From: a virus | IMG/VR virus record: IMGVR_UViG_3300021091_000020 | Span: 1-64,000 of that record | Length of the DNA: 64,000 nucleotides | Reading direction: 5' to 3' (one strand) | Shown here: piece by piece, positions 11,051 through 59,861 of the stretch | How positions within the stretch are numbered: position 1 is the first letter of the stretch | Layout of the letters: the number at the start of each line of letters is the position of its first letter | Notes under the pieces: model-generated | The model's input: only the letters and a program-made list of their open reading frames with translations | What the model was told of the DNA's origin: nothing | Database searches by the model: none | Made by a program: the position numbers and the translations under genes

Positions 11051-11055
11051 TTAGA

Positions 11056-11140: not shown

Positions 11141-11153
11141 CAAAATTATTTTG

Positions 11154-11185: not shown

Positions 11186-11223
11186 TAAATGGTTATATGT
11201 TTAATTACCGTTAGGTAAAAGTT

Positions 11224-11772
11224 ATGTCACATCAAGCACAAAGAGATTTTTGTTCTAGAATTAAATCTTTATATCCCGAACATTTCAAAAACAGTAAAGT
11301 TTTGGATATTGGCTCCCTTGATATAAATGGAAACAACAAATTCCTATTCGATGATTGTGAATACATTGGATTGGATATTGCAGAAGGAAACAATGTTGAT
11401 GTTGTTTGTATAGGTCACGAATACGATGCACCAGATGAAACATTCGACACAATAATATCAACCGAAGCACTTGAACACGATATGTATTACGAGAAAACAA
11501 TACTTAATGCCATCCGTATGTTAAAGAAAGGTGGTGCATTTGTATTGACTTGTGCTAGCACGTTCAGACCAGAACATGGGACACCGAGAACTGACGGATC
11601 ATGGGCGGCTCCGCTATTGAAAGAAGTATCAGAAGAATGGAAAAACTATTACAAAAATTTGGATGAAGATGATTTGAAACAAATACCTGGTTTTGTTGAT
11701 ACATTTCCAGATGGTATCTATGAATATAATCATAATAAAATGGATATGTATTTCTTCGGTATTAAGAAGTAA
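11224..11772 (+). CDS. Class I SAM-dependent methyltransferase (glycan-associated type)
   Basis: VLDIGSLDING, YIGLD, FDTIISTEALEHD. Confidence 0.8.
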   Translation: MSHQAQRDFCSRIKSLYPEHFKNSKVLDIGSLDINGNNKFLFDDCEYIGLDIAEGNNVDVVCIGHEYDAPDETFDTIISTEALEHDMYYEKTILNAIRMLKKGGAFVLTCASTFRPEHGTPRTDGSWAAPLLKEVSEEWKNYYKNLDEDDLKQIPGFVDTFPDGIYEYNHNKMDMYFFGIKK

Positions 11773-12142: not shown

Positions 12143-12635
12143 TCAGACAGACGGTGAAAGAGTTAGAAAAATTGCGTATGGTTTTGTTGGAACAAAAGAA
12201 GTAGGAAACAACGGAGGATTTTGGGTTACAAAATTTTTGAAATCCGTAGGACTTCGACCAGGTAATCCTTGGTGTGCAGCATTTGTTTCATTCTGTCTTG
12301 ATAGTGCCGACATAAAAACAATGCGTGTTCGTTCTGGATTGGCAAGACATTTTATATCCAAGAACAAGACAATCAAAGCAACAAAAGTTTTACAATCCAA
12401 TATGAAGATACCGATGGGTTCGGTTGTAGTTTGGCGTAGAGGAACAACTACATTTGGTCATGTTGGTTTTGTAGACAAGTGGGAAGGTAAAAGTGGAACC
12501 ACAATAGAAGGTAACACTACTTCCGGTAAAGGTGGAAAAGAATGGGATGGCGGGGGCGTATGGTATCGTAAGAGAACGATAAATCCATATAACCATTTCC
12601 GAATTACAGACTTTGCTCTGTTAGACCAACGATAA
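12054..12635 (+). CDS. CHAP-domain peptidoglycan hydrolase with N-terminal signal peptide
   Basis: PWCAAFVS, GHVGFV and TIEGNT motifs. AAGGAGGT RBS at 12038-12045 before GTG. Confidence 0.85.
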   Translation: MKYLQKILSLMLFGCLLTSSLPLSASQTVNQTDGERVRKIAYGFVGTKEVGNNGGFWVTKFLKSVGLRPGNPWCAAFVSFCLDSADIKTMRVRSGLARHFISKNKTIKATKVLQSNMKIPMGSVVVWRRGTTTFGHVGFVDKWEGKSGTTIEGNTTSGKGGKEWDGGGVWYRKRTINPYNHFRITDFALLDQR

Positions 12636-12640
12636 AATTA

Positions 12641-12672
12641 AGGTGAGTTTCGGCTCACCTTTTTTATTTTTT
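12641..12672 (+). terminator. Rho-independent terminator
   Basis: AGGTGAGT-TTCG-GCTCACCT followed by a T-tract. Confidence 0.85.
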
Positions 12673-12673
12673 G

Positions 12674-12705
12674 CTTGGTATTTATGAATAGATTTCGTAT
12701 ATTTG
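12674..12705 (+). promoter_or_regulatory. Bacteroidota-type promoter
   Basis: CTTG, N20, TATATTTG 12698-12705. Confidence 0.65.
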
Positions 12706-12733
12706 TTACATTCACAAAAGTTATGTAAATAAA

Positions 12734-13537
12734 ATGATAGACTTATGTATCACACATCATAAAACCGAAGGTTTGATAGAAAAACTGTTAAAAGAATTAC
12801 ACGAAGATGTTTTTAAATTAAATGAAAATTGTAAAATATATTTGTATGATTCTGGCTCAGGTGAAAAGTTCAAACAATGGATTAAAAAAAATATAACCAA
12901 ATACATAATAGAAAAGGTTTATTTTAAAGAAAATAATGGATATGCATATGCATGTAATTATATGGCATTAAAAGGCAATTCTGAAATAATAGGATTTATT
13001 CATGGCGATGTTATTATATCGGCTAAAGATTTGGAACAAGTAAACCGTATTTTTTCAGAAAATCCTGGTATACACATCCTCGGTCCAAAAGTAATTACAG
13101 ACGATAATAAGATAGACTCTGCTGGTACATTTGGTTCAAATTTTAAACCGGAATTTCGTGGATTGAATGAAATTGATAAAAACAAAAACCTATACAGAGA
13201 CAGACAAAAATGTATAAATGTATCCGGCTGTGCTTATTTCATAAGAAGAAATGTGTGGAATGTTTTAACAAATCATCCAAAATATAGAAGATTATATCCA
13301 AACGCATTAGGTGCATTTTTAGAGACACCACATTTTTTTGAAGAAGTATGGTGTTCATACTTTGCAAGATTTCTTGGTTACAATGTTGTTTATGATGGGA
13401 GTATAACCGTAAAACACACGGTAAGATCATCATCAGTATTACCTGCCGAACATAAAAATTCAGTTGAAAATACGGCATATGAAATAAGTCAGAAGATATT
13501 TTTGTATACTTGCGATAAAATTAATATACCAATTTAA
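12734..13537 (+). CDS. Glycosyltransferase family 2
   Basis: YDSGS, NNGYAYACN, FIHGD, VSGCAYFIRR, FFEE motifs. Confidence 0.8.
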   Translation: MIDLCITHHKTEGLIEKLLKELHEDVFKLNENCKIYLYDSGSGEKFKQWIKKNITKYIIEKVYFKENNGYAYACNYMALKGNSEIIGFIHGDVIISAKDLEQVNRIFSENPGIHILGPKVITDDNKIDSAGTFGSNFKPEFRGLNEIDKNKNLYRDRQKCINVSGCAYFIRRNVWNVLTNHPKYRRLYPNALGAFLETPHFFEEVWCSYFARFLGYNVVYDGSITVKHTVRSSSVLPAEHKNSVENTAYEISQKIFLYTCDKINIPI

Positions 13538-13560
13538 TAAATAAAACAGGAGAATGTTAT

Positions 13561-13752
13561 ATGGAATTTCCATTGACTGCACAAGACAGAGATTATTTTG
13601 AAAAAAATATATCATCTAACAACAATTATCAATCAGAAACTATTAGTGATACAAAAAGAAATTTGATACGAATTGTATCGGAAATGGAAGTAGAAATGAG
13701 GATGCTTGAAAATAAAATTGAAGAAATTAAAACAATAATCTATCATTTGTGA
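13561..13752 (+). CDS. Hypothetical coiled-coil protein
   Basis: AGGAG RBS. Confidence 0.55.
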   Translation: MEFPLTAQDRDYFEKNISSNNNYQSETISDTKRNLIRIVSEMEVEMRMLENKIEEIKTIIYHL

Positions 13753-13804
13753 ATTTACCACATATTTATTAGTGTTATGTTTTAGTGTTATGAGTTAGTG
13801 TGTT

Positions 13805-14500
13805 ATGAATAAAAAGATGGGCAGACCACAACTAATACTTACCGAAGCACAAGTTAGATATGCAATGCAAAACAGTTTCGGTAATAAAGATGCTGCCAGA
13901 TTTCTCAAAGTAGATTACAGAACTTACAAACGATGGGCGCAACAGCACATTGATAGTGAGACAGGTAAAACTCTATTCCAATTACATTCAAAACTTGGTG
14001 TTCCACTTACGCGTGAAAAGAAAGATGATAAGTGGAATGGTAAATCGTTTGACTGTAATAAAGGTTACAAAGAAAAGTTAGAGGATATTCTTGACGGTAA
14101 ATATCCTGCATACGAAACAAAGAAGTTACGAAAAAGATTATTACTATCAGGATGGGTTCCGTGTGTTTGTGCCGCTTGTGGGTGGGATGAACCAAGAATG
14201 ACTGATGGTAATTATCCCCTTCTGATAGACTTCATAGATAATAACTGGCGTAATTGTAAGTTAGACAATCTGCGTCTGTTATGTTTTAATTGTTATTTCA
14301 ATCTTGTAAGGACACCATCAACGTCCTATCAAGGATGGACATACGGAACGGTATCAAAGACACCTTGGTATGGCGAGAAACGCCCAAGAGACGGCAGATA
14401 CCGTAGAAGATTGGAAGAACGCATCAAACAACAAGAACAAAAGAAAAAAGAAGAACAAGAAAAATTCTTTGATTGGGATGAAATTCCTGGCGAAGAATAG
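13805..14500 (+). CDS. HTH plus degenerate HNH zinc-finger protein
   Basis: N-terminal HTH (KDAARFLKVDYRTYKRW). CAAC...IDFIDNNWRNCKLDNLRLLCFNC, where the usual DHIDG His is replaced by Phe. Confidence 0.7.
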   Translation: MNKKMGRPQLILTEAQVRYAMQNSFGNKDAARFLKVDYRTYKRWAQQHIDSETGKTLFQLHSKLGVPLTREKKDDKWNGKSFDCNKGYKEKLEDILDGKYPAYETKKLRKRLLLSGWVPCVCAACGWDEPRMTDGNYPLLIDFIDNNWRNCKLDNLRLLCFNCYFNLVRTPSTSYQGWTYGTVSKTPWYGEKRPRDGRYRRRLEERIKQQEQKKKEEQEKFFDWDEIPGEE

Positions 14501-14545
14501 ATGTTATATGTATGTTACATTTTTTAATTTAATTTGGAGGTTTTT

Positions 14546-43916: not shown

Positions 43917-45341
43917 TCATGTTAAGTATAATTCAAAACGATTTTTTGGTTTAAAGTTTTCCAACACGGCATTTATATCAACAATGATTCTATTAGCCAT
44001 ATTGTCTCTTGACATTCCAACTGCCTCATTCATCAGAAACTCTCTACCCTTTAAACCAGCAGAAGTTCTTTCTTGTTTTGGTGTCTTATACCATTCATAT
44101 AAAGCATTACCAATATCTCTGAAATCGGCACGGTCATCAAAAATATATGGTGTTGGGACTGAACCTTGTAATGATATATTTGATGGCCAAACTGGCTTAA
44201 CCCATTCACCATGTTTCAAATGTCCCCATTCATCTTTTCTATGTAAAGTGTGTATTTCAATATAGTCATCAGCAGTAAAATAATCATTTGTTTCTGGATT
44301 GATAAAACCACATTGGTCTTGCATACCACCTGTTACATTAACAACAATAGGAGTTCCGGCAGAAACAGCTTCTGCTGTTCCCAATCCAAATCCTTCATTT
44401 GATGCCATATTAACAACAACATCTGCATTGTTGTAAAGTATATTCAATTGATTTCCAGAAATTACTTTTTCATCAAACAATACGGAATATTCATTACATA
44501 ATTCTCCAACTAAAGCAACCAAATCAGTTCCATTTGGATCGATAGGTTGCGTGTGCATGAATAACACACAATTGTTTTTAGCATCACCGCCATTCTTATC
44601 AATTAACTGACACATATGTTTGTAAGCAAGAACAACATCACCGGGATGTTTACGATGAATATTTCTGTTATTCCACATTACTACAAATTTATCTGGATTG
44701 TTTCCTCGAATTTTTTTACTTTCATCTTCCATTTTTTGAAAATCAGGATGTCCTTCATTTATTGGAAAAAATATTCCAGTATCAATTCCGTGTGGAACAT
44801 AAGTTATTCTATAACTTGGCGCCGGTTCATTTATTCTAGAGAATATTCTTTTATTTATGCCATATGTTTGTTTTGAAATTGCCATCAATAAATCACAACT
44901 CGCATAAGCTTCTTTGTTCCACATTGGATCCGTTGCGGTATCTCCAATCAAACCAGCACCATCCCAAATGTTCAAATACATTAGTGGTATCTTTTGGCGT
45001 ATTTCATGTTCCATATTATACAACCATCCCCAAAATCTTGGATCTGTAAAGTGAAGAATTGCATCTGGTTTTTCAATTTCAATAAGTCTCCTCAATAAAA
45101 ATGAATCACCATACCCATCATTACAATATACTTTTACATACGCATCTTTTACTCCAGTCATGTTTTTAGTATCTTCACATAAATCCATAACCTTACCTTT
45201 ATCTGGATGATTTATAGCCGCACCAACTTGAACCCAATCAAATTCTCTTGCAGTTCCAATTACTATATCTCTTGATACAGTTGCAATGCCGGATGTTAGT
45301 CTCAAATCATCTGACAACAATAATATCTTTTTCTTTGCCAT
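43917..45341 (-). CDS. GT4-like glycosyltransferase
   Basis: SGIATV, VPHGID, NRN..RK, NEGFGL...EA...GTPIV...TGG. Confidence 0.85.
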   Translation of the reverse strand: MAKKKILLLSDDLRLTSGIATVSRDIVIGTAREFDWVQVGAAINHPDKGKVMDLCEDTKNMTGVKDAYVKVYCNDGYGDSFLLRRLIEIEKPDAILHFTDPRFWGWLYNMEHEIRQKIPLMYLNIWDGAGLIGDTATDPMWNKEAYASCDLLMAISKQTYGINKRIFSRINEPAPSYRITYVPHGIDTGIFFPINEGHPDFQKMEDESKKIRGNNPDKFVVMWNNRNIHRKHPGDVVLAYKHMCQLIDKNGGDAKNNCVLFMHTQPIDPNGTDLVALVGELCNEYSVLFDEKVISGNQLNILYNNADVVVNMASNEGFGLGTAEAVSAGTPIVVNVTGGMQDQCGFINPETNDYFTADDYIEIHTLHRKDEWGHLKHGEWVKPVWPSNISLQGSVPTPYIFDDRADFRDIGNALYEWYKTPKQERTSAGLKGREFLMNEAVGMSRDNMANRIIVDINAVLENFKPKNRFELYLT

Positions 45342-45350
45342 GTGAAACCT

Positions 45351-46736
45351 TTATATGTTAAAAAACTTCTGTGTTGTGTTTGTGGAAACGGTTTGCATAT
45401 TCAATAACATCTTACGATACGGTTTGAATTTGTAACCCATCTGTTCCAATGAAGAATTAAACCAATCTTCCGAATAATTATCTTTATTTCGTTTACCATT
45501 TGAAACTATCGTTTGCATATCACGAATAAAGTTATCAAGTTTATTCATGTCTCTGGTCAATCTTATCAATCTCAATCTTCTTCTGTTATATTCTTCTTCA
45601 TCTTGTTCTAATCTTTGTATCTCCAATATAAGACTTTTTAACGAATTTTCCAAATCATTTATATCATAAGACAAAACTAATTCAGCAAATTCTGTTCCTT
45701 TGAACAAGTCAATATATGTTTTATCATAAATTGGAATAGTCATCAAGTTCTTTTCTATCTGAGCATATTCAAATCTTGGTGTGATGAACATTCCGAAGAA
45801 AGGCACTTTGGTGTTTGTTGTTGATATACTAAATCTACAACCAGTTAAAAAGTTCATCATACTTTCCATCGTGTATGTTCCGGCGAGTATCATTGGTTTA
45901 TCGTTATCAAAAACTTTGAACACAGTTGGATCCAAATCAAAGTCTGGTAGAAATGTATCACTAAAAGTTTTACGAGAAACATTTGCGTGTTCTGCTAATA
46001 TCTTTACATGATTGAAATAATTTTCGGGCGAGTAAGTGTTTCCGATGTGAACCAATTTCTTACCTGAAAGGTCTTTCAATCCTAAATTGCCCATTGTTTC
46101 TACTATCGGTTTGAAGTTCCCATGACCTTTGAATTTAGCATAGTATGCACATTCTGAAATATATGGTAATTCTTTTTTATCTATCCATGATTTTTCAATC
46201 CACTTGTCATAGATACTCATGTCAATGTAACCACCGACTTGAAAAGTATATGCAGAAGTTCCTCTCATTCCAATATACTCTTTGAGTGCATCCACAAAAA
46301 ACGGTGTGTATGTTAAATAATAATCACTATATTTTATGAAAGCAGGAACACAAATAGTATTGAAGTGCATGCCCTCATACGGGTATATCTCATGGTCAAA
46401 GAATGCAGTTATAGTATTCAACTTACAATACATCTTTGCCAAGTCAATCAATTTTTGTTTGTGTTCTGGTTTTCTTTTTTCTATACCATCAACATCATAG
46501 ATAAATTTGTTGAGGTTCAAAACAACAATATCATAACCTTCCAATTTGTTTTTCAGTTCTGTCATTTCCATTTCGGAAATATCTACACAGTTCTGATATT
46601 CAGATTTGAAATTATTTGTTTCGCTAGGATTAAAGTAAAAGGTATCAACACTATCCAGTGATGATATATTTTTTGTAAAGGTATGTATGCCCCTATAAAC
46701 CGAAAGGTCAATAATTGCTAATTGAGCTATTTTCAC
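45351..46736 (-). CDS. T4 alpha-glucosyltransferase-like DNA glycosyltransferase
   Basis: Collinear resemblance to the T4 Agt sequence as recalled: YDIVVLN, FDHE, YTFQ..., SW.D..E, G...SP, Y....MM..L....F, EY...E....TIPIY, YD.ND.E, Y.RRR. C-terminus QKFFNI. Confidence 0.65.
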   Translation of the reverse strand: MKIAQLAIIDLSVYRGIHTFTKNISSLDSVDTFYFNPSETNNFKSEYQNCVDISEMEMTELKNKLEGYDIVVLNLNKFIYDVDGIEKRKPEHKQKLIDLAKMYCKLNTITAFFDHEIYPYEGMHFNTICVPAFIKYSDYYLTYTPFFVDALKEYIGMRGTSAYTFQVGGYIDMSIYDKWIEKSWIDKKELPYISECAYYAKFKGHGNFKPIVETMGNLGLKDLSGKKLVHIGNTYSPENYFNHVKILAEHANVSRKTFSDTFLPDFDLDPTVFKVFDNDKPMILAGTYTMESMMNFLTGCRFSISTTNTKVPFFGMFITPRFEYAQIEKNLMTIPIYDKTYIDLFKGTEFAELVLSYDINDLENSLKSLILEIQRLEQDEEEYNRRRLRLIRLTRDMNKLDNFIRDMQTIVSNGKRNKDNYSEDWFNSSLEQMGYKFKPYRKMLLNMQTVSTNTTQKFFNI

Positions 46737-46796
46737 GAAACACCTAATGATATTAGTTTACTATAAATATCTAGTATTTTTACAAAACATTAAATT

Positions 46797-47708
46797 TTAG
46801 AATGGCATTATGTTTCTTTTTTCTTTCGGACAAAGTTCTTCGTTAGTATTAAATTCACAATACTTACAGTTTGAATAATTGTTACCGCCTTCGGCAGGAT
46901 ATATTACATCCAATTTATATTCACCGTCTTCGGTAAATACAGTTGTAATAAATTCAGCAATTTCTTTCTTTATATTGTTTTGAGAAACTTTGCCGTTCGA
47001 TGGTTCAAATCTTTGAACTCTTTGTTTCATTGCTTCGTATTCTGCATCTTCAATAATCTTTCTACGCAGAATTAAATACTCAACATTTATTTCTTCTGGA
47101 CTAACACCATATTGTTTTGCATAATATGTTTTGTATAGAACAAGTTGTGATGTCTTTACCTTATCTGCCTTTGCATATTTGTTCCAACCGTTTGTGCTGG
47201 TTTTGAAATCATATATGTATATCTCACCAGTCTTTGTATTCTTAATAACCAAATCCAAAAATCCAACAAGTTTAACTGTTGGATGTGTTTCGAGTGGAAC
47301 AATGTTTATAGGCATTTCAATACCAACCAATTCATAATCTTTCTTTTGAAAGAAATCTGCTCTATGTGCCTTAAACCAATGAAGAATTTGAACACCGTCT
47401 GAATAGTATTCTTTAAGTTCTTTATCACTTGAAAAGTGAACATCTTTATTTTCGGTGAGTAATTTTTTATATTCATCACGAATACCACTCTGTAACATTT
47501 CATTGAGATCAAGTTTATTTGCCTCAACAATTGATTTCTCATAGATGGTCTTAACATACTCTTGCAACACTTCATGCATTACTGTTCCGAATAGAGCAGC
47601 AGTTGATGGTTGATAAGTTGCGAGTTTATCTATGTATGCGAGTTTCCATCTATGAGGACAACCTTTCCATATTTGATATTGTGAAAAAGATACCTTTTTG
47701 TTAGGCAT
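46797..47708 (-). CDS. PD-(D/E)xK RecB/Cas4-like exonuclease
   Basis: SFSQ....CP, FGTVMHE, GFLDL...IYDFKTS, QL..Y, C.YC.F...C. Confidence 0.85.
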   Translation of the reverse strand: MPNKKVSFSQYQIWKGCPHRWKLAYIDKLATYQPSTAALFGTVMHEVLQEYVKTIYEKSIVEANKLDLNEMLQSGIRDEYKKLLTENKDVHFSSDKELKEYYSDGVQILHWFKAHRADFFQKKDYELVGIEMPINIVPLETHPTVKLVGFLDLVIKNTKTGEIYIYDFKTSTNGWNKYAKADKVKTSQLVLYKTYYAKQYGVSPEEINVEYLILRRKIIEDAEYEAMKQRVQRFEPSNGKVSQNNIKKEIAEFITTVFTEDGEYKLDVIYPAEGGNNYSNCKYCEFNTNEELCPKEKRNIMPF

Positions 47709-49818: not shown

Positions 49819-50889
49819 CTAGCGATTTTTTTGAAATACGAAGATTGGCTCTCTTTTATAGCCAGCCCCCATAACAGCGGACAGTATCAGTTGTAGAGTA
49901 TCGGTGTGATCGAAACCAACTAGGTTGGCATACTTTATAGTCATTTCTTCCAAATCTTTATACTTTGGTGTGTTGGCTATGTTTATTAGCATATAGCCAC
50001 CCATTTTCAATCCGTGATAACAATTACGGAAAGTTGATTGAAGAAAACCAGAACCCCAAGTTTCACGGGTTGGAAATTTATTATACGATTGAGTTTCTTC
50101 ATCTGCATATTTTTCAGTATCGAAATATGGTGGCGATGTAAAACATAAATCTAAACTATCTTTTTCGGGAAGATAATCTTCCGAACCCATCATATTCAAT
50201 TGAATATCTTTACCGAGATAATCAAAATCATCGCGTAATTTACACAGACCTTCAAATGTTTTCGTTGATGGTTCTGTTCCAATATAAGTTTTAATATGAG
50301 GGGAAGCAAGAGCACCAACCAATCTTCCACCCCAACCACAAGACATATCCCACATCACACCGTCACCACCATACTTTTTATAGATAACACCAGCAGCAGT
50401 TGGTCTAAAATTGGAAACACCTTGAACACCAGAATATATTTTAAGTGATTGACGAAGACGGTTCTCTTGAAAGGAACTACCCCAATGTTTTGACAACCAC
50501 TTCAAACATTTGCGTATTGTCATTTTGAATGTTTGGTCATTCAAAAAATTATCGATTGGAGACATCTTTGAGTTTCCGCATTTAACTTCCATCGCGTGCG
50601 GAAAGTATGACCACGCTAACCGAAGTCCGTTCATGGTTTGAATTATATCACCGTCTTTGAAAATACTATCATAATCAAACTGTTGTAGTTTTCTCATGTG
50701 TTCATGTTTTTCGTGTTCAGTAATTTTCATATATGGATAACCGTGTTTGCGGTAATACTGAAAGATACAATCTATTGTATCATCCAATTCTCTTTTACCT
50801 GCAAAAAATTCACCGGTCTCTTTCCACAAACGAACTTCTAGCGGATCAACATCAAAGAATTTACTTAAACTATCGCCGTTAGGTTTCAT
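49819..50889 (-). CDS. DNA amino-methyltransferase (GWGGR/SPPY type)
   Basis: WDMSCGWGGRLVGA, FTSPPYF..EKY, C-terminal EPIFVF. Start corrected to MKPNGDSLSKFF. Confidence 0.85.
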   Translation of the reverse strand: MKPNGDSLSKFFDVDPLEVRLWKETGEFFAGKRELDDTIDCIFQYYRKHGYPYMKITEHEKHEHMRKLQQFDYDSIFKDGDIIQTMNGLRLAWSYFPHAMEVKCGNSKMSPIDNFLNDQTFKMTIRKCLKWLSKHWGSSFQENRLRQSLKIYSGVQGVSNFRPTAAGVIYKKYGGDGVMWDMSCGWGGRLVGALASPHIKTYIGTEPSTKTFEGLCKLRDDFDYLGKDIQLNMMGSEDYLPEKDSLDLCFTSPPYFDTEKYADEETQSYNKFPTRETWGSGFLQSTFRNCYHGLKMGGYMLINIANTPKYKDLEEMTIKYANLVGFDHTDTLQLILSAVMGAGYKREPIFVFQKNR

Positions 50890-50890
50890 G

Positions 50891-52516
50891 TTAGGGTTTA
50901 TAGAAAACAAAAATTGGTTCGTGCTTAAACCATTCACCATTGTATAAAACTTTATTTGCTAATCGTTCTGGATCGGAATTACCAATCATCTTTGTCATAA
51001 GCATACACATTTTACCTTTGTATTCCATTCCCAAAGATTTTAATATATCAATAGAATCTTGTTCAAGATTTATTGTTTTGGTTGCAGATACTTTGATATT
51101 TGCAATGTTCCAACAAATATATCTATCATTTTTCAAATAAGCAACAGCAGTTTCCAATGTTGGTTTCAAAAAGTTATCACGCCAATCTGCGTATTCTCCG
51201 TGTGCCTTATATGATTGTGTATCATCATCAGAATACATTTCACGATTGAAATACGGCGGTGATGTGAAAACAAAATCCAATTTACCTTTATACTTTTGAA
51301 AATCAGGATTGAATTGTATTGTTTCAGAACCATCTTGGAAAACTTCGTATGTATGGTCTTCTCTTACATCAAAGAACTTCGATGAAAGTGAACTACCTTT
51401 CTCACCAATAGACTTCAAATAAAAGTCTGCAAGATATTCATAACGAGTAATTCCCAAATCAGGAATTGAATTGTCTGTGTTTGGATCCGTTCCAACATAA
51501 TGTATCGGCCTACTCACCGACATTGCTCCTAAAATTCTTCCACCCCAACCGGCACTTGGATCATATACCGTAACCATTTCACTTGCTGGAATATGTTTTG
51601 TAAAATGTTCATACAAAAACTTTGCAGTCATTGGTGGAAAGTTTACAGCAGGTTGTGAGAAAGAAATACGGAATATCTGAAATGCTTGTGGAAATAATTT
51701 TGCACTCTTTTCATATACTCTTACCAAGAAAACATTTACTCTTGGTTCTTCACCGTCTTTTTTTATCATAAAATTATCAGACAGTTCTTCTATATCACCT
51801 AAATAAAATATCATACTCACATCAAGTATTCCATCCTTAACAAACTCACGGATTTGGTCTGCCTTTATAGTCAAATACTTTGTATATTTTTTATTGTAGG
51901 TTTCAAGTGTGCAAGATATTTTTGATATACGCAAACCTTGTCCATCAAATCTACCATCACCATTCTTAAATGCAAGAAAGAAATCGCGTAGAGTTTCACC
52001 TTCTCGGAAATAAGGGTTCTTGATTTGATTTGATGAAATAGATTTACTATAAAGATACATCGAGTCATTGTAAAGAGTTCTACGCATAACATGATGAAAA
52101 GTATCTTTCATTTCATCGGTAAAGAAATCATAGATTGATCTAGATGTCTCACCACTTGTTCCACTCGCAATCTTTGTTTTCAGCATCGTTGGAAAGAATT
52201 GATTAGCAGCAGAACCATTTTTAGAGAAATTGGCAATGACGCCGATTATATCTTTGTCATTGCCTTTATCTGGATTATGAAAAACTTTTGATGAATTGAA
52301 TTGACGGAGCTTTGAAAACGATTGAACAATCTCCTCTTCGGATCTGCCAACGAGTGGTGGTTTACCGTTTTCATCCCAATCTTTCAAAAACCTCATTCGT
52401 AAATCTTCTACCCATTCGGAAAACTTTTTATCATCATAAGTTACCAATTCACCGTATGTAATATTACACGGCCAAGATAGAACATTACCCTTTTCATAAA
52501 AATATTTTTTCATCAA
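50891..52516 (-). CDS. DNA amino-methyltransferase (GWGGR/SPPY type), large
   Basis: YDPSAGWGGRILGA, FTSPPYFNRE.Y, C-terminal EPIFVF. Confidence 0.85.
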   Translation of the reverse strand: MMKKYFYEKGNVLSWPCNITYGELVTYDDKKFSEWVEDLRMRFLKDWDENGKPPLVGRSEEEIVQSFSKLRQFNSSKVFHNPDKGNDKDIIGVIANFSKNGSAANQFFPTMLKTKIASGTSGETSRSIYDFFTDEMKDTFHHVMRRTLYNDSMYLYSKSISSNQIKNPYFREGETLRDFFLAFKNGDGRFDGQGLRISKISCTLETYNKKYTKYLTIKADQIREFVKDGILDVSMIFYLGDIEELSDNFMIKKDGEEPRVNVFLVRVYEKSAKLFPQAFQIFRISFSQPAVNFPPMTAKFLYEHFTKHIPASEMVTVYDPSAGWGGRILGAMSVSRPIHYVGTDPNTDNSIPDLGITRYEYLADFYLKSIGEKGSSLSSKFFDVREDHTYEVFQDGSETIQFNPDFQKYKGKLDFVFTSPPYFNREMYSDDDTQSYKAHGEYADWRDNFLKPTLETAVAYLKNDRYICWNIANIKVSATKTINLEQDSIDILKSLGMEYKGKMCMLMTKMIGNSDPERLANKVLYNGEWFKHEPIFVFYKP

Positions 52517-53232
52517 TTGTTATCCAATTTTACTAAATAATATTTTGCATCATAGTCATCAATATCAAATTCAACTTTTGCCAAACCTTCTGATGAAACT
52601 TTGAGTGTTCCACCATTCAAATCTTTATTAGCAGCAAGAATACCATTGAAGTATTTAGCAGAGAAACTAATTGGTTCAATATCATCACTAGCATTACAAT
52701 CAATATCAATTGAGATACGATTTGAATTTGTATTTGAATAACCGAGAACAATTTGATACTTATTCAGTTTATCATTTTTTAATACCGTAAACTTTTCAAT
52801 ATCCGATAGAGCAGACTTTGCCTTGATGAATTTATCAATAAATTCTTTTGTAATTGTAATATCCAACTCAAACTTTGGCAATTCTTTCAAGTCTGGTGCA
52901 GGTGGAATAACTGCAAGGTCAGCCAACATATAATTTACAGTAGTTGATTTATCATCAATAGTCAATGAGAATGCCTTATCACCAGCACCATTCACTTGAA
53001 AGTTTACTGTGTTACCAAGAACACCAAGAAGACTTACAAGCAAGTCTGTGTTATACACACCAAACTTCCAATCATCACCTTGAAAACTTTTCAACTTAAC
53101 TTCGCCAACTACACATTTATCATCAGAAATAAAACGAGTGGAAAGCCCACCATTTGCATTCCAAGCAACAGACTGTATCAGCTTACCCAAATGATACTTA
53201 CTGATAAAGTTCAACAACTTTGATTTTTCCAT
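52513..53232 (-). CDS. Sliding clamp (gp45/PCNA-like)
   Basis: 239-aa two-lobed alpha/beta pattern (FGVYNT..L..LL; L.VSSEGL..VEF.....Y.LV); lies between the polymerase and clamp loader. Confidence 0.75.
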   Translation of the reverse strand: MEKSKLLNFISKYHLGKLIQSVAWNANGGLSTRFISDDKCVVGEVKLKSFQGDDWKFGVYNTDLLVSLLGVLGNTVNFQVNGAGDKAFSLTIDDKSTTVNYMLADLAVIPPAPDLKELPKFELDITITKEFIDKFIKAKSALSDIEKFTVLKNDKLNKYQIVLGYSNTNSNRISIDIDCNASDDIEPISFSAKYFNGILAANKDLNGGTLKVSSEGLAKVEFDIDDYDAKYYLVKLDNN

Positions 53233-53267: not shown

Positions 53268-53298
53268 CTAATATATGAAATTTTTGCGTAATTTCAAA
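53268..53298 (-). promoter_or_regulatory. Bacteroidota-type promoter (variant TATATTAG)
   Basis: On the - strand: TTTG, N19, TATATTAG, upstream of the clamp gene. Confidence 0.6.
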
Positions 53299-55810
53299 AC
53301 GAAAAAAACTTTTGTGCAACTTTTTTATTCTCGGTTGGGAAATCCCACTGCATTGCCTCATAGAAATTTTTTAACTTGCCATCCAATTCCGAAACAAATA
53401 ATTCATTGGCATCAAAATAATCCTTGACAAATTGTATAATTTCTTCTGGATCCGAATCACCACGAAATGCCAACTCTTCCAATCCGTATTTGTTTGATTT
53501 CAAATAAGCAATCTTAACCTTATCACCATTTTTAATTGGCGGATATTTAGGAGGACAACCAAATATAGTCAATAACTTATTATAGTTTATAGCCGCCTTG
53601 ATATGTGATGGCGTTCCCTTTGCATACTTACCGAGAACATCATCTTTAACGGGAGTAGCATACTTTTTAATATCTTTTATTGAAGAAGTTTTTGCAACCT
53701 CGTTTATCAAAACATCATTCAAATTCTTTTTGAAAGTCAATATGTATTCATCAATTTCATTTTTATCTTTACCTTTGAGAATATCAATCATCACATCCTT
53801 CATACATTTTTGAAATGATTTGGGAAAAGATGAACGAACAATATCCAAACCTTTAACTTCCAACTTATCCATTGGAACACCGTTATCAGAAATAATCCAA
53901 AGTGCATATCTCTTTTTCTTTTGCCAGAATCCTGTTCTACCAATCATTTCTTGTTTGATTTCCAAACGATGTTTGTCAGTATTGAATATCTTTTTGGCAA
54001 AAACATCATAAAATTGATTGACATAATCTTGAACTTCCGTTGCAATCTCATAAATCTTCGGCGTCATTGTTTCAATATCGTTTGTATCAATATCCGGAAA
54101 TCTATTATTCACCAAAGGTAAACACGAAACAAACACAGAGTCAGTATCAACATACTGCACATAATCAATATCATCGGTTTTCAATTCTTTATTGTATTTC
54201 ATATTGATAGCAGCTTCTGTTTTCTTGATAACCGTTTGACCAGAAAGTGTAACTGCTTCTGCATTGTCAATATCATAAAAACGAAATGCAGGTAATCCCA
54301 AGATACCATACATACTATTCAAAAGAATTTTCTGAACAAGTTGTCTTTTCTTGTAAAACTCATACTTTTCTGTATTTCCAGCTTTACCCCACTTCTTCAT
54401 TTCATTTTTATATTCCACCCGTTTATCAAACCAATCTGAAAGAATTGCTGGAATAAGTCCTGTTTTATCTGAACTATACATGACACCATTTGATGAAACT
54501 GTATACTTGTATTTATCAAGAAATGCTTTTAATTTTTCTTTTGATATACGGTCATTGCCAACAATATATTCATCTTTTTTTCCACGAAGAAAATCCTCAG
54601 CATTCCAATCTTCAATCTTAGCAATCTTTGTTTCTGGAGAAATGTTTAGTGTCATAATGATTGACGGATATAGTGATGTCAAATCCAAGTCATACATCCA
54701 ATCATATCTACCCGGAACAGGATCCTTAACAAATGCACCGATAAATCCTTTCTCACCGCTCTCTTTCAATTCTTGCATCTTTTCTTGTCTATCAGCAGGT
54801 TTGTTCGGAGCAACAACACCGCCAATATGTTTAAGATAAGTAAGCATAGCACCTTCCAAATACTTTGATGAATATACAAAGTCTTCATAAGGAACATGGC
54901 CAACATGAGCGATACCACGAACTAAATCAATATACTGTAACTTCTTGTCCAATTCGATAACCAACTCAACGTCAGTAATGTTGTATTCTATAAATGTATC
55001 AATATCATTTTCCATCAAGTCATCAAGGTTGCCTTCATACTCAACCTTACCACGACCAAGTTCGGTCATACAAACTGCGTTTAGAGCATAAGATGGTAAT
55101 TCTTTATATGAGAATTTTTTATACACGGTCATATAATCTAACACGGATGTTCCACCGATTGTATAACGATTACGATATGGTGAATAAAACATTTCACCAA
55201 TTACTGAAAGACTATTTGCTTGTTTTTTACCAAGAACTCTTTTGATACGATTATACAAATATGGAATATCGAATGCATCACAATTCCATCCAGTCATAAT
55301 ATGGGGTTGGATTTCTTGAATAGCATCTATGAATTTAAGCAACAAAGTTTTTTCATCTGGACAAGGAATTACTTTTTTGTTTTCCGTAGTTTTATTTTCC
55401 AATTTTCTTTTCTTGTCCAATACAAGAATTGTATATTGGTTTGTTGCGGAATCATGGTAAGCAATAGATGTAACTTCGTTATTACCTTGTGTTGGATCAG
55501 GAATACCGGTAATCATTTCAACCTCAATATCAAATGTCATTGTAACAATTCCTTTCGAGGGCATATCGGAATCACTATACATATCAACAAGAATACGAGT
55601 TGTCTCTGCAATATCCGATTCAAATAGGTCAGGATCATTCTTTACAAAGTTTGTAACCTTTGAAAGTTTATCACCGTATAGAGAAATATATTTACCGTTA
55701 GGATCTTTCTTGTAAGCATAAGGCGTGTATTCAAAATGCATCAAACCTTTGGCATCATCCCACACCCATGCTTCTTTTGTATTTGTTTTAACAAAAATGT
55801 TTTGATACAT
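53294..55810 (-). CDS. Family B DNA polymerase
   Basis: Exonuclease motifs FDIE, GWN...FD, YN..D. Polymerase motifs DLTSLYPS, KILLNSMYG, YVDTDS, KKRY. Start corrected to MYQNIF. Confidence 0.97.
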   Translation of the reverse strand: MYQNIFVKTNTKEAWVWDDAKGLMHFEYTPYAYKKDPNGKYISLYGDKLSKVTNFVKNDPDLFESDIAETTRILVDMYSDSDMPSKGIVTMTFDIEVEMITGIPDPTQGNNEVTSIAYHDSATNQYTILVLDKKRKLENKTTENKKVIPCPDEKTLLLKFIDAIQEIQPHIMTGWNCDAFDIPYLYNRIKRVLGKKQANSLSVIGEMFYSPYRNRYTIGGTSVLDYMTVYKKFSYKELPSYALNAVCMTELGRGKVEYEGNLDDLMENDIDTFIEYNITDVELVIELDKKLQYIDLVRGIAHVGHVPYEDFVYSSKYLEGAMLTYLKHIGGVVAPNKPADRQEKMQELKESGEKGFIGAFVKDPVPGRYDWMYDLDLTSLYPSIIMTLNISPETKIAKIEDWNAEDFLRGKKDEYIVGNDRISKEKLKAFLDKYKYTVSSNGVMYSSDKTGLIPAILSDWFDKRVEYKNEMKKWGKAGNTEKYEFYKKRQLVQKILLNSMYGILGLPAFRFYDIDNAEAVTLSGQTVIKKTEAAINMKYNKELKTDDIDYVQYVDTDSVFVSCLPLVNNRFPDIDTNDIETMTPKIYEIATEVQDYVNQFYDVFAKKIFNTDKHRLEIKQEMIGRTGFWQKKKRYALWIISDNGVPMDKLEVKGLDIVRSSFPKSFQKCMKDVMIDILKGKDKNEIDEYILTFKKNLNDVLINEVAKTSSIKDIKKYATPVKDDVLGKYAKGTPSHIKAAINYNKLLTIFGCPPKYPPIKNGDKVKIAYLKSNKYGLEELAFRGDSDPEEIIQFVKDYFDANELFVSELDGKLKNFYEAMQWDFPTENKKVAQKFFSF

Positions 55811-55811
55811 A

Positions 55812-57038
55812 TTATACCTTTTTGAACATCCATATTGGTTCACAAAACTTTTTATCTTTATTCTCTTGAGCAAACTGAACACTATCATCAAGAAAGTGTC
55901 CGTCTCTTGTAGCTGTTCCTGCACCGGCAGAGTTAGGTCTTTTGGACATTTCCATTCCGATACATCCCAAGTATTCCATTCCACTCTCTACAAGAAAATC
56001 ATTCATCGGGTTTGTTATCTCTAACCATTGTCTACCCGTAGACCATGCGGAATTTGTGTAAACATCTGCAATGTTTATTGCCATGACACCACCAACTCGC
56101 AATGATGGTATAATATTTCCTAGTGTCTTTTGTAGAAAATCTTTATTCCACATATCAATTCCTTTATATCGAACCCAACTCTGTGTATCTGATTGTGAAT
56201 ACTTCTCAACATTGAAATACGGTGGTGATGTAAACACCAAATCAAAATGTTCTGGATATTGTGAGAAATCAAAATCTTCTGCTGGTGATTGATAGAAATT
56301 TGTTTTCTTCTTACCTTCAAAGAAACCTAAATTCTTTTCATAGAACTGGACTTGTTCATCATATATCGGATGGTTTTCTACTCTTGGATCCAATCCAACA
56401 TAATGTTCGGTGCAAGAGGCAGCGTAAAATCCCGCAAGTCTGTCACCCCATCCCATAGAAAAGTCTAATACATTTTTTGCACCTAACATTTCGTACATAC
56501 ACTTTGCAACATTAGGTTTGAACTGTGAACAAATGTATTTACGCAATCCTAACATTGTTCTCAATTCTGATTTACCGATTGTTTCCATTTTAAGAGAATA
56601 CATAGAACCCATAAGTGACTTCATAAACTTATGGTTTTGCCATGTTCTAGCAGGACCTGGTGATACGGATGCATCAACTTCCCAACGGTTCTTTTGTTGG
56701 AAATAGTTTGATGCATCGTTACCAGTATTAAGACGACTGAAATATAACTGTTTTCCACCATAAGTCAAAGCATATTTTGGTTCGGATGCTTTTCTTGGAA
56801 ACCACTCACCTTCTTTTAGAATTTCATTCCAACGAATACCTTTCAATTTTAGAAACTCGCTTTGAGCACTTTCGATTGTAATATCCGCATACGGTAGTGG
56901 ATATGTCATTGCTATTTCAGCCAGACGGTCTTTGACATATTCTTTATCAAAGTTTTCTTTTATGTATGTTATTTGTTCAGCAGTTATGGATAGATACGGA
57001 TTCATTCCGTAAAATTGTTGGAAATAATCTTCTTCCAC
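55812..57038 (-). CDS. DNA amino-methyltransferase (GWGDR/SPPY type)
   Basis: LDFSMGWGDRLAG, FTSPPYFN.EKY, C-terminal EPIWMF. GTG start. Confidence 0.85.
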   Translation of the reverse strand: MEEDYFQQFYGMNPYLSITAEQITYIKENFDKEYVKDRLAEIAMTYPLPYADITIESAQSEFLKLKGIRWNEILKEGEWFPRKASEPKYALTYGGKQLYFSRLNTGNDASNYFQQKNRWEVDASVSPGPARTWQNHKFMKSLMGSMYSLKMETIGKSELRTMLGLRKYICSQFKPNVAKCMYEMLGAKNVLDFSMGWGDRLAGFYAASCTEHYVGLDPRVENHPIYDEQVQFYEKNLGFFEGKKKTNFYQSPAEDFDFSQYPEHFDLVFTSPPYFNVEKYSQSDTQSWVRYKGIDMWNKDFLQKTLGNIIPSLRVGGVMAINIADVYTNSAWSTGRQWLEITNPMNDFLVESGMEYLGCIGMEMSKRPNSAGAGTATRDGHFLDDSVQFAQENKDKKFCEPIWMFKKV

Positions 57039-57658: not shown

Positions 57659-58306
57659 TTAAATGTCAATATCTTTCCAATCACCATTTGCAATAGTTTT
57701 TGTTGCCCATTTACCCATTATGTTTGCGTGTTTGTAGTAGTTATCTTCTATTATCGTTTCAAGTAATGTGGTTTCAAACATGAATGGTCTACCACTAACC
57801 TTTGTCATAAACTCACCACCTTGCCCCATCTTTCTATCTTTGAACTTAACTTCTTTACCAAAACCAGGATACGAACTTTCACAATCACTTGTTCCAATTA
57901 GTGTAGAACCATCGCCGTCTTTTGGAATATAGAGAATAGAATCCTGTTGATACTTACCGCCAAGATTTATCAAGTCTTCTCGCAATTTTCCTTTGTCTTT
58001 CAAATCAACAACAAAGTAAACATTTTCTTTAACTTCTTTTGCATCAGGTGTTCCGTAGTTTTCAATATAAGCACCTTGAACTGCAGTAACACCGTAACCC
58101 ATCATTTGAAGATTGGCATATAATTGTCTGTTTCTTTTTTGATTGTCACCTTTTGAATATGGTTTATCTTCAGCTGTAGCACAACCTTCTTTGGAACGAA
58201 ATGCAGTTATTGTGCCACAATCATGTTCTTCCATATGTTTTGACAATCGAGCAAGCCCACTCTCGTTTAATTGTTTATCTGGTAATAAATGTTTTAACTT
58301 TGCCAT
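57659..58306 (-). CDS. Conserved phage protein with LKHLL..QLNE leader
   Basis: NES.L.R...ITAFR...N..RN..L...G.Y.E...E..YFV...LG.KY.QDS.L; ATATTTAT motif upstream. Confidence 0.7.
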   Translation of the reverse strand: MAKLKHLLPDKQLNESGLARLSKHMEEHDCGTITAFRSKEGCATAEDKPYSKGDNQKRNRQLYANLQMMGYGVTAVQGAYIENYGTPDAKEVKENVYFVVDLKDKGKLREDLINLGGKYQQDSILYIPKDGDGSTLIGTSDCESSYPGFGKEVKFKDRKMGQGGEFMTKVSGRPFMFETTLLETIIEDNYYKHANIMGKWATKTIANGDWKDIDI

Positions 58307-58349
58307 TGTTTCTCTCTGTTATGTAAACTGTTTACAATAAATATCAAAA

Positions 58350-58845: not shown

Positions 58846-59595
58846 TTAACCTCCTACATTCCAAAATAATGCATCTTCCGATGCGTGTTCTTTAATAAAT
58901 GACCAAACTTTTGAGTCATAGTAATCCGAAGAAGGAAATGGTGGCTTCTCTGCCGGTTTACATTTTTGTTCAAATTTATATTTCGATATGAATACTTCTG
59001 CCCTACCCCTCTCTCTGTCTGTTGTATTATGGCCAACCCTAACACCATAGACTTTTGCATCTGGCCATGCCCTCTGTAATCCTCTTGAAAGAACTCCCGA
59101 ACTTATACAAGACCAAACTTCTTTTGGTTTGATTGGCAACTGACTAGCAATTCTGGCAACTTCATCAATAACAACAGGATGATCAAGACCGAATGGCAAC
59201 AATTGTGTATCGGGTGTTTCAAGGGCATACTTTTTAGCAACACTTTGGATGTGTGTTAGAAACCCCATAGGAACTTCTATGATGTTTGCACCAATAGATA
59301 TTGCTTCTTCGGTTAGTGGTAAGTGTTTTCCTTTTGGAATAACAACGGTTGCCTTCAATCCTAAATCTTTACAAGCATAAGCAAGTGCTACTTGAGCATA
59401 GCCAACTCTTGGAGACGCATATACCCATTCACGAACATGGGATTGTGATTGAAGATAACGATAAAGGAAACGTCTTTTTGTTCCACCCGGAAGCAAATCA
59501 TCACGGACTACCCAAATGTTTTCGTGTTTTTCGATAACAATTTCAGGTAAAGTTATAGTGACATCTTTCGTGGGATATTGAAAGAAGTCTGTCAT
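58846..59595 (-). CDS. PLP-dependent enzyme, fold type II (TrpB/ACC-deaminase-like)
   Basis: VVRDDLLPGGTKRR (PLP lysine), GYAQVALA, SSGVL, YDSKVW, LFWNVG. Confidence 0.8.
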   Translation of the reverse strand: MTDFFQYPTKDVTITLPEIVIEKHENIWVVRDDLLPGGTKRRFLYRYLQSQSHVREWVYASPRVGYAQVALAYACKDLGLKATVVIPKGKHLPLTEEAISIGANIIEVPMGFLTHIQSVAKKYALETPDTQLLPFGLDHPVVIDEVARIASQLPIKPKEVWSCISSGVLSRGLQRAWPDAKVYGVRVGHNTTDRERGRAEVFISKYKFEQKCKPAEKPPFPSSDYYDSKVWSFIKEHASEDALFWNVGG

Positions 59596-59603: not shown

Positions 59604-59861
59604 TTAAAGACTATTGATAATTTGTTCGTAATATGACATTGGTTTTAATCCAACAACTTGCTGAACTACTTTACCATGTTTTTCAAACAAAACAGTTGGA
59701 ACTGCACGAACACCATATTGTTGTGCTATTTCTGAATTTTGATCAATATCTATTTTTTGATAGCCAATCATTGGATATTCCCCAACTATTTTTTGTATGA
59801 TTGGCGTTAATTGTTTACACGGTTGGCACCATGCTGCTGTGAAATGTTTTATTGTAATCAT
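59604..59861 (-). CDS. Thioredoxin
   Basis: FTAAWCQPCK, VRAVPT. Confidence 0.9.
   Translation of the reverse strand: MITIKHFTAAWCQPCKQLTPIIQKIVGEYPMIGYQKIDIDQNSEIAQQYGVRAVPTVLFEKHGKVVQQVVGLKPMSYYEQIINSL

Follow-up and report, generated by a model that had tools for sequence, protein, structure and literature searches.

A remote relative of T4 DNA alpha-glucosyltransferase with a polymerase-like C-terminal tail in an uncultured phage

The protein encoded at 45351..46736 (minus strand) in the 64,000-nucleotide stretch of viral DNA analysed here (the window) is best explained as a nucleotide-sugar-dependent GT-B glycosyltransferase of the retaining type, from a small family that is sister to that of the T4 DNA alpha-glucosyltransferase (AGT). 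It is homologous to AGT and resembles it in fold, keeps the ribose-binding Glu along with the Glu five residues before it, and carries a C-terminal tail in common with the DNA polymerase (PolB) of the same phage. On balance, we lean towards reading it as a DNA glycosyltransferase tethered to the sliding clamp; that it acts on DNA, and when the modification takes place, is what we infer from these features. The full record that contains the window has 123,502 bases and is 70% complete.

The preliminary description of the window had taken the ORF for a genuine gene, and it is one. It encodes 461 aa on the minus strand, and its GTG start codon is preceded by a Shine-Dalgarno-like AGGTG (46741..46745, minus strand) located 4 nt 5' of it; homologues share that start position. 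The core domain (residues approximately 1-412), predicted to adopt the GT-B fold, was aligned to T4 AGT. The structural alignment stopped at about residue 412, and residues 413-461 (45354..45500, minus strand) form a C-terminal extension absent from T4 AGT. This 49-residue extension distinguishes the ORF from T4 AGT, as does its place at the head of a glycan operon. The extension ends in the peptide QKFFNI (45354..45371, minus strand), a candidate docking motif for the sliding clamp.

Relationship to T4 alpha-glucosyltransferase

The likeness to T4 Agt had originally been proposed with five motif pairs as examples. All five were found in T4 a-gt (AF158101) and were collinear with the ORF, so that the quoted T4 motifs were accurate. 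As judged by sequence comparison, the pairwise likeness to T4 a-gt is barely above chance, since BLASTP gave one HSP of 119 aa with 22% identity and an E-value of 0.006 as a single comparison, while the profile likeness is clearly above it. The Pfam search of the protein returned 0 families at E<=10. The AGT model PF11440 (25-bit cut-off), the T4 a-gt family (GT72 of CAZy), was not reached by the protein, and gave no match at E<=10 in the six frames of the record and none at E<=1 among eight remote relatives. The phmmer search of PDB returned no AGT, and the best match in PHROGs (E 0.0048) was of unknown function and not usable. The hhalign comparison of the 13-sequence alignment of the family (A2) with the 27-sequence AGT alignment (A3) resulted in a probability of 98.0 and an E-value of 2.9e-13 over 320 columns (Q55-411 against T68-404). 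As controls, the profile of the neighbouring GT4 family (A7) gave E-values of 0.2 with A2 and 0.32 with A3, and T4 b-gt gave 0.16 with A2 over 40 columns. On these profile comparisons, the homology to AGT members is detectable and specific, with the GT4 controls negative, even though the identity to T4 AGT is only about 15% (53 of the 352 aligned positions).

The AlphaFold model of the protein showed a pLDDT of 82.7 and a pTM of 0.85, with residues 451-461 below a pLDDT of 50; an earlier model built from seven near-identical rows (pLDDT 40.4) was too poor for use. In the VIA-align comparison, all five T4 AGT entries were superimposed on the model with Z of 25.3-25.9 and rmsd of 3.5-3.8 Å over 355-367 residues, and the next-best fold was that of TarM (Z 19.7). 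The retaining GT4-type enzymes TarM, PimA, HepE, BshA and MshA have the same overall fold (Z 17-19.7) but scored approximately 6 Z units lower than AGT against the model, and T4 BGT (PF09198), also of GT-B fold, gave Z 17.5 with no sequence signal. Foldseek placed AGT chains at all of ranks 1-9, the best match in BFVD was 'DNA alpha-GT [Cyanophage S-TIM5]', and the first match in the ESM Atlas was a PF11440 cluster (0.96). The assignment to the AGT type rather than to ordinary GT4 transferases, made in the preliminary description, was borne out by this structural comparison, as T4 AGT entries and not GT4 enzymes were the best matches both by Z and by Foldseek.

Two alignments agreed on residue pairs conserved in both families, which were (T4/ORF) H114/H115, G233/G232, E306/E323, E311/E328, P319/P335 and R374/R387. 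The E-x4-E donor motif of AGT (E306/E311) is thereby kept in its spacing as E323-x4-E328, which differs from the E-x7-E motif of GT4 enzymes, and the GT4 Pfam model (Glycos_transf_1, PF00534) gave no match at E<=10. Glu311 of AGT, a ribose-binding residue conserved in GT-B enzymes according to excerpts of PMC6024577 (citing Lariviere 2005), was aligned to E328 by both hhalign and MAFFT, and E328 is invariant in the 13-sequence family. Although members of the family have diverged to 18-26% identity, they show little or no variation at E328, E323, H115 and the R15-G16 pair. The other contacts are kept only in part. Arg204 of AGT, which contacts the beta-phosphate, is replaced by Y198 in the hhalign alignment and by E195 in the MAFFT alignment, and the counterpart of Gly15, another beta-phosphate contact, is uncertain, MAFFT placing G16 opposite G10 of the R-G pair. 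The EGCG loop of AGT has no clear counterpart, with R-G-x-E-G-C-G apparently shortened to R-G. One of the three glucose-contacting His residues is kept (H114 as H115), while H116 and H140 are replaced by I117 and Y143, respectively, and E232, R283 and H309 of AGT are also not kept. The loss of two glucose-contacting His residues and of Arg204 suggests that the donor or acceptor pocket has been remodelled.

Remote GT-B relatives of AGT recognised by profile methods only are described in excerpts of PMC6024577, namely gp306 of phage G and ORF003c of RB69, the latter a proposed arabinosyl-hmC transferase. Their sugar-contacting His residues are not conserved, from which the authors of that paper infer a different sugar. 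The phages encoding them make hmC via a gp42 homologue, whereas none was found in the present record (70% complete).

The C-terminal tail and the sliding clamp

KFF is present within the last eight residues of only two of the 157 ORFs, the AGT-like protein and PolB (QKFFSF; 53297..53314, minus strand), with the K at position -5 in both. The form [QS]KFF occurs four times in the 157 ORFs (39,424 aa) against 0.8 expected, at these two C-termini and in two DNA-methylase-like paralogues. Of the 33 distinct PolB tails of relatives, 28 have retained KFF, down to 51% identity, as has PolB of Mel-JY01, and the methylase-like proteins likewise keep their KFF motif across clades. The homologue 61% identical to the AGT-like protein has the C-terminus SKFFSES, and among the four remote homologues with the extension, three end in KLF or GLF and the fourth in KVL.

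The gp43 polymerases of T4 and RB69 bind the clamp by a short hydrophobic/aromatic peptide with which their disordered C-terminal tail ends. The peptide here is likewise terminal and is common to PolB and the AGT-like protein; it differs from the clamp peptide of gp43 in its local consensus, xKFFx[FI]. By analogy, the C-terminal tail of PolB is probably a clamp-binding peptide, and that of the AGT-like protein is a candidate for the same binding. The proposed docking partner is the gp45-like sliding clamp encoded at 52513..53232 (minus strand; phrog_223, E 2.9e-9). When the clamp trimer was modelled together with residues 412-461, the predicted complex scored 0.36, compared with 0.00 for the best of three controls. 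This is weak support and was given little weight; by the calibration of the method, such passes are wrong more often than right unless docking was already likely on other grounds. The partner had a pLDDT of at least 42 in this model, and the runs agreed in at least 45% of contacts. Clamp binding has a precedent in T4, as excerpts of PMC13216743 report that T4 alpha-glucosyltransferase co-purifies with and binds the gp45 clamp, and that no binding of gp45 by T4 BGT was seen in the pull-down; if it does bind the clamp, the candidate peptide of the ORF would be a further likeness to T4 AGT.

We propose that the disordered C-terminal tail with QKFFNI mimics the polymerase C-terminus QKFFSF, and that this tail would hook the AGT-like enzyme to the sliding clamp. 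The tethered enzyme would then add its sugar to a base of freshly replicated phage DNA, ahead of packaging.

Genomic setting and distribution of the gene

The AGT-like gene lies 60 nt downstream of the PD-(D/E)XK exonuclease gene (46797..47708, minus strand), the last gene of the replication block, and is followed after 9 nt by the start of GT4a (43917..45341, minus strand), with which the ordinary genes of the glycan cluster begin. The dehydrogenase and epimerase genes of the cluster, which the preliminary description had named as a possible source of the sugar, lie approximately 15 kb away. The promoter-like motif GATATTTATAGTAAA (46757..46771, minus strand) is located 20 nt 5' of the AGT-like start. 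It is the only promoter-like motif of the junction with GT4a and one of three copies of GATATTTATWGTAAA in the record. Its core ATATTTATA is likewise present ahead of tail and portal genes, and the motif was found before the tape measure, baseplate hub, sheath, tube and portal genes, which are five of the ten motif-preceded genes scanned. The same 15-nt form is also present at the head of the methylase/polymerase block at 58331, so the motif is not restricted to structural genes. The scan for sigma-70 promoters and terminators detected sites no more numerous than in shuffles. Among nine AGT-less relatives checked, five had the same motif no more than about 340 nt before GT4a, and in three of these the distance was about 40 nt, indicating that the AGT-like gene was inserted at the head of the glycan operon. 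Neither this position behind a promoter-like motif nor the polymerase-like tail had been pointed out in the preliminary description. The corresponding slot in relatives is empty or is occupied by GuaB or by GT92-like and GT7-like transferases, these transferases being those of L072 and L082. All 13 slot-covered relatives without the AGT-like gene have GT4a and GT4b, with which the cluster begins, so the AGT-like gene is not a core step.

The family is tiny, with nine matches among 1.84 billion representatives, and falls outside PF11440. The tblastn search of 50,697 phage records with the protein and three remote relatives gave no match at E<=0.01, so that no cultured phage was found to carry the family, and neither the scans of viral, metagenome and genome contigs with the alignment of the remote relatives nor a scan with one of these alone gave a match. 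The remote relatives are singletons on contigs of 2.8-17 kb, and no description of this AGT-like family was found in the limited literature collection searched. The phyletic pattern is that of a single gain, a recent insertion that only one clade (clade A) has. A single gain gives no co-occurrence signal, and co-occurrence with the methylase-like genes is likewise uninformative because the gain is nested inside methylase-bearing clades. The T4 gene order (pol, clamp loader, clamp, nuclease, a-gt) resembles the order here; shared ancestry of the two was rejected, since the gene is a recent one-clade insertion and the nucleases are of different families. In 12 clade-A loci, the AGT-like gene is 93-99% identical to the reference, like the replication genes, whereas the adjacent GT4a is only 71-79% identical in 11 of them. 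The AGT-like gene was therefore not co-inherited with one allele of the glycan cluster. Net charge and pI did not serve as a discriminator (pI 6.0 for the AGT-like protein and 6.1 for T4 AGT).

Acceptor and alternative readings

To our knowledge, the only substrate on which AGT-type enzymes have been characterised is the hydroxymethylcytosine DNA of T-even-like phages. The preliminary description had seen no hydroxymethylase or TET/JBP gene in the window, and none was found in the full 123,502-base record (70% complete) either. The models PF00303, PF12851, PF20691, PF00145 and PF02511 gave no match in it at E<=1, and no TS-like hydroxymethylase, TET/JBP, TAGT or C5-methylase was found, so that the record, as far as it goes, differs from T4 in the dCMP hydroxymethylase. 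Acceptor-making enzymes were also not found in four other clade-A records. In the one complete relative (177 kb, clade B), the thioredoxin and dUTPase genes flank a TS-like gene and no AGT-like gene is present, and the thioredoxin-dUTPase junction of the present genome, unlike that of the relative, contains no TS-like gene. The undetected acceptor-making enzyme and the clade-B TS-like gene were both counted against action on DNA. A replisome-tethered DNA glycosyltransferase whose acceptor is made neither by a TS-like hydroxymethylase nor by TET/JBP is, in our estimate, unlikely when taken as a whole. Its acceptor could perhaps be a base altered by the three SPPY amino-methyltransferase-like paralogues bearing the clamp motif together with the PLP enzyme encoded in their block, or perhaps even an unmodified base.

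The setting of the gene would also agree with an AGT-derived GT-B enzyme recruited to add a sugar to the target of the 17-kb glycan cluster, a reading that we hold to be somewhat unlikely. That target would most likely be a virion protein or a cell-envelope glycan, the enzyme would be made together with the structural proteins, and the KFF tail would be fortuitous or serve another purpose. The gene is indeed the first behind a motif that stands before GT4a in relatives without it and before structural genes (5 of 10 scanned), only 9 nt separate it from GT4a, and its slot holds other transferases, GT92-like and GT7-like, in L072 and L082. The failure to find an acceptor-base enzyme in the record (70% complete) or in four clade-A records, and the partial loss of the glucose and phosphate contacts of AGT, point the same way. 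However, the same 15-nt motif heads the methylase/polymerase block at 58331, and GT4a/GT4b persist in all 13 slot-covered relatives that have no such gene. The conservation of the gene (93-99%) also departs from that of GT4a (71-79%) in 11 of the 12 loci, and the exact PolB-type C-terminal KFF, which only 2 of 157 ORFs have, is retained within the family. As far as the excerpts of PMC6024577 and PMC13216743 go, moreover, the characterised members of the nearest family all act on DNA.

The replacement of Arg204, Glu232, His116 and His140 of AGT and the apparent cut of the glycine-rich loop R-G-x-E-G-C-G to R-G would fit yet another possibility, that the protein acts on a different acceptor such as a free nucleotide or small molecule, or has lost catalysis and serves as a clamp- or DNA-binding factor keeping the AGT fold. 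We regard this as quite improbable. The (near-)invariance of E328, E323, H115 and R15-G16 at 18-26% identity argues that the active site is kept, and the strong conservation of the whole protein, with 85-99% identity in 33 homologues, also speaks against this reading.

The present results add to the AGT-type enzymes a small sister family that is undetectable by the Pfam model, with a remodelled sugar pocket and a polymerase-like tail, in a phage lineage where no known route to a hydroxylated base is seen. If the substrate of the enzyme is a glycan or protein, this would be the first recruitment of an AGT-type fold away from DNA. If the substrate is DNA, the enzyme would imply an unrecognised acceptor or a new sugar and be a candidate for an anti-restriction mark in abundant uncultured phages, and the tails would offer a handle for finding replisome-tethered DNA-modifying enzymes. 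Should the reading of a replisome-tethered enzyme with an acceptor from neither a TS-like hydroxymethylase nor TET/JBP be true, the protein would represent a new kind of DNA hypermodification and would be the first of the AGT type for which a polymerase-like clamp peptide is defined.

Kinship of the AGT-like protein with T4 alpha-glucosyltransferase

The AGT-like gene was called as an ORF of 461 codons with a GTG start (45351-46736, minus strand), preceded by AGGTG 4 nt upstream. It belongs to an IMG/VR record of 123,502 bases that CheckV estimated to be 70% complete; the window covers its first 64 kb. The family-B polymerase (PolB) of the record was 61.7% identical to its counterpart in Microcystis phage Mel-JY01, and its identity to that of every other cultured phage was near 30%.

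The preliminary description had paired five motifs of this ORF with segments of the T4 DNA alpha-glucosyltransferase (a-gt, AGT), and all five were found in the T4 sequence taken from AF158101, collinear with the ORF. The pairwise signal appeared marginal, with E 0.006 and 22% identity over 119 aa in BLASTP, and E 0.005 when the family was compared with the single T4 a-gt sequence by hhalign. AGT was not detected by Pfam or PDB sequence searches with the AGT-like protein, and the AGT family PF11440 had no match at E ≤ 10 in the whole record. With profiles on both sides, the alignments indicated clear homology: a 13-row alignment of the AGT-like family matched a 27-row AGT alignment (T4 together with 26 of 93 detected PF11440 homologues) with probability 98.0 and E 2.9e-13 over 320 columns. 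As controls, a seven-row profile of the adjacent GT4 gave E 0.2 with the AGT-like family and E 0.32 with the AGT alignment, and T4 b-gt gave E 0.16 with the AGT-like family. T4 a-gt and the AGT-like protein were identical at 53 of 352 aligned positions.

The AlphaFold2 model built from the 13-row alignment reached a pLDDT of 82.7 and a pTM of 0.85; an earlier run on seven near-identical rows had reached a pLDDT of 40.4. T4 AGT chains occupied ranks 1-9 in Foldseek (E 2.6e-11 to 1.2e-9), and VIA-align gave Z 25.3-25.9 for five of five AGT entries (rmsd 3.5-3.8 A, 355-367 residues), followed by TarM (Z 19.7) and T4 BGT (Z 17.5). The best BFVD match was annotated as 'DNA alpha-GT [Cyanophage S-TIM5]', and the first feature match in the ESM Atlas was a PF11440 cluster (0.96). 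The outcome that would have spoken against the preliminary description, structural matches to ordinary GT4 transferases alone, was not seen, because AGT entries topped both structural searches.

According to PMC6024577, which cites Lariviere 2005, Gly15 and Arg204 of T4 a-gt contact the beta-phosphate, Glu311 the ribose, and His114, His116 and His140 the glucose. Both hhalign and a joint MAFFT alignment placed Glu311 at an invariant E328, and Glu306, His114, Gly233, Pro319, Arg374 and the R9-G10 pair were also kept, as E323, H115, G232, P335, R387 and R15-G16, respectively. His116, His140 (Tyr in the AGT-like protein), Arg204, Glu232, Arg283 and His309 were lost. We read this pattern as a probably live nucleotide-sugar site in which the sugar or acceptor pocket has changed.

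The family is rare. The AGT-like protein had 34 relatives among 5.8 billion clustered proteins, 33 at 85-99% identity and one at 61%, all without a name or named 'hypothetical'. When 1.84 billion representatives were searched in full with a HMMER profile, nine proteins reached E ≤ 0.001, including seven full-length remote relatives with 18-26% identity; none of the eight matches outside the protein's own cluster was matched by a glycosyltransferase Pfam family at E ≤ 1. IMG/VR contained 37 loci with the gene, all 93-99% identical, and tblastn of the AGT-like protein and three remote relatives against cultured phages gave no match. Two remote members without a C-terminal extension, P0039 and P0041, each came from a contig 16,710 bases long and may be tandem paralogues of a single contig. 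A 189-aa protein of the representative library, P0037, matched residues 321-399 of the AGT-like protein (E 2.3e-28). As it additionally matched a tetrahydrofolate dehydrogenase/cyclohydrolase domain, P0037 may be chimeric or have arisen in assembly.

The KFF tail and the sliding clamp

The AGT-like protein ends in TQKFFNI and PolB in AQKFFSF. [QS]KFF occurred four times in the 157 ORFs of the record (0.8 expected), at these two C-termini and in two of three methylase-like paralogues; KFF within the last 8 residues was confined to PolB and the AGT-like protein (2/157), both with K at -5. Relatives had 33 distinct PolB tails, of which 28 kept KFF, down to 51% identity and including Mel-JY01; in the other five the best alignment ended early, which may reflect inserts. 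The 61% homologue of the AGT-like protein ends in SKFFSES. Among the seven remote members, four have a C-terminal extension (three ending in KLF or GLF, one in KVL) and three lack it.

The tail was disordered in the model (pLDDT <50 from residue 451). PMC13216743 reports that the T4 clamp gp45 co-purifies with alpha-GT, not with beta-GT; the AGT-like protein has a candidate clamp peptide. Complex prediction of residues 412-461 with the clamp trimer scored 0.36 (runs 0.40, 0.36 and 0.25), with 0.00 for the best of three controls, a partner pLDDT of at least 42 and at least 45% of contacts agreeing between runs. The predicted docking lends weak support to clamp binding; by the calibration of the tool, a pass of this kind is wrong more often than right if the guess was not already likely.

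The methylase-like motifs, an N-terminal SLSKFFDV and an internal SSKFFDV, are conserved in orthologues across clades. They lie in two of three paralogous SPPY amino-methyltransferase-like genes (49819-50940, 50891-52516 and 55812-57038, minus strand), which are interleaved with the PolB, clamp and clamp loader genes and, by their sequences, are candidates for clamp-tethered DNA methylases. A further clamp-motif candidate may be the 231-aa protein of unknown function at 13805-14500, which has EKFFDWDEIP at a distance of 12 residues from the C-terminus.

Gene order, promoter-like motif and insertion slot

The genes between about 59.9 and 29 kb are all encoded on the minus strand, and their transcription order is thioredoxin, PALP enzyme, dUTPase, S-AdoMet-lyase family protein, methylase-like gene, PolB, clamp, two methylase-like genes, clamp loader, a weak DUF1599 match, PD-(D/E)XK exonuclease and the AGT-like gene, followed by a 17-kb cluster of GT4/GT2/GT7-like transferases, FkbM/TylF methyltransferases, an epimerase and a UDP-glucose dehydrogenase. 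The S-AdoMet-lyase family protein (57659-58306, minus strand; PF23780, E 3.2e-13) heads a block encoding three SAM-dependent methylase-like enzymes. The PolB ORF as listed (53294-55984) overlaps the upstream methylase-like gene (55812-57038) by 173 nt, and its real start is probably further in, since the Mel-JY01 match begins at residue 59. GT4a (43917-45341), the first gene of the glycan cluster, matched both Glycos_transf_1 and PF20706 'GT4 in conflict systems' (E 6.1e-7, 29.2 bits, cut-off 26).

The most enriched 8-mer upstream of genes was ATATTTATA, with 19 copies in the record; in 15 cases a gene on the same strand starts no more than 70 nt downstream, which suggests a phage-specific promoter-like element. 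Five of the ten motif-preceded genes scanned encode the tape measure, baseplate hub, sheath, tube and portal, and we infer a 'late' class for the motif. It stands 25 nt before the GTG of the AGT-like gene. The 15-nt form GATATTTATWGTAAA has three copies, before the AGT-like gene (46757-46771), before gene 57659 at the head of the methylase/polymerase block (58331-58345), and before a gene of unknown function at 103907 (105290-105304 of the record). The AGT-like stop is 9 nt from GT4a. As the motif precedes the AGT-like gene and clade A has no copy between that gene and GT4a, the AGT-like gene appears to open a transcription unit running on into the glycan cluster. Among nine relatives without the AGT-like gene, five had the motif at most about 340 nt before GT4a (L072, L080, L090, L084 and L107; at about 40 nt in L080, L090 and L084), and no exact copy was found in the nuclease-GT4a gap of the other four (L069, L063, L068 and L082).

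Eighty IMG/VR loci around clamp homologues were each scored for 16 window proteins. In clade A (clamp at least 95% identical; 25 loci), the AGT-like gene was present in 15/15 loci that extend 7.1 kb or more downstream from the clamp; in two more its start lies at the contig end, and the other eight are too short to tell. It occurred in one of the 55 other loci, L070 (clamp 80%), as a partial copy 95% identical over 152 aa, and in 0/13 among the other loci with the nuclease-GT4a slot fully covered. This slot (45342-46796 in the window; 12148-14502, 9737-11392 and 11936-12994 in L072, L082 and L090) is a variable insertion hot spot whose content differs by clade: empty in L069, L063 and L068 (gap of about 268-273 nt), occupied by GuaB in L090 and Mel-JY01 (L084 has the same 1.1-kb gap), and by GT92-like and GT7-like transferases in L072 and L082 (Pfam on the L072 pair). 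GT4a and the next cluster gene, GT4b, were found in every clade, and the methylase-like genes in clades A, B and D. The AGT-like gene is a single recent insertion, and therefore no argument from co-occurrence is possible. In 12 clade-A loci it was 93-99% identical to that of the window, versus 71-79% for GT4a in 11 of the 12; this places a recombination boundary immediately downstream of the AGT-like gene, and the glycan cluster allele has been swapped.

Acceptor base and target

The absence of a dCMP hydroxymethylase or TET/JBP gene, reported for the window in the preliminary description, extended to the whole 70%-complete record, where thymidylate synthase (TS), Tet_JBP, TAGT, C5 DNA methylase and ThyX had no match at E ≤ 1. 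Thymidylate-synthase and TET matches were likewise absent from four other clade-A records (28-65% complete). One TS-like gene (232 aa; PF00303, 26.7 bits, cut-off 24.3) occurs in the complete 177-kb clade-B genome, in which the AGT-like gene is absent. There the TS-like gene is followed by a PALP enzyme (279 aa) and an asparagine-synthase-like amidotransferase (501 aa), in a cassette between thioredoxin and dUTPase (L069 1408-4443) that could encode a pyrimidine hypermodification pathway. In the window, the PALP gene (58846-59595) comes directly after thioredoxin (59604-59861), and the TS-like cassette is therefore absent from its genome; the window's clade has a different PALP gene at the cassette site.

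We slightly favor a clamp-tethered DNA glycosyltransferase, since the protein shows specific kinship with a family known from DNA glycosylation alone and combines a polymerase-type tail with its conservation pattern. Against DNA as the target stand the acceptor pathway not found in the record and the partly remodelled pocket, and the gene belongs to an operon whose slot is used by relatives for glycan transferases; an enzyme of the glycan operon is a clearly less probable reading. Use of another acceptor, or loss of catalysis, appears improbable, and a small remainder of probability goes to none of these readings. The AGT-like proteins are a new sister family of AGT, invisible to Pfam, with a defined candidate clamp peptide.
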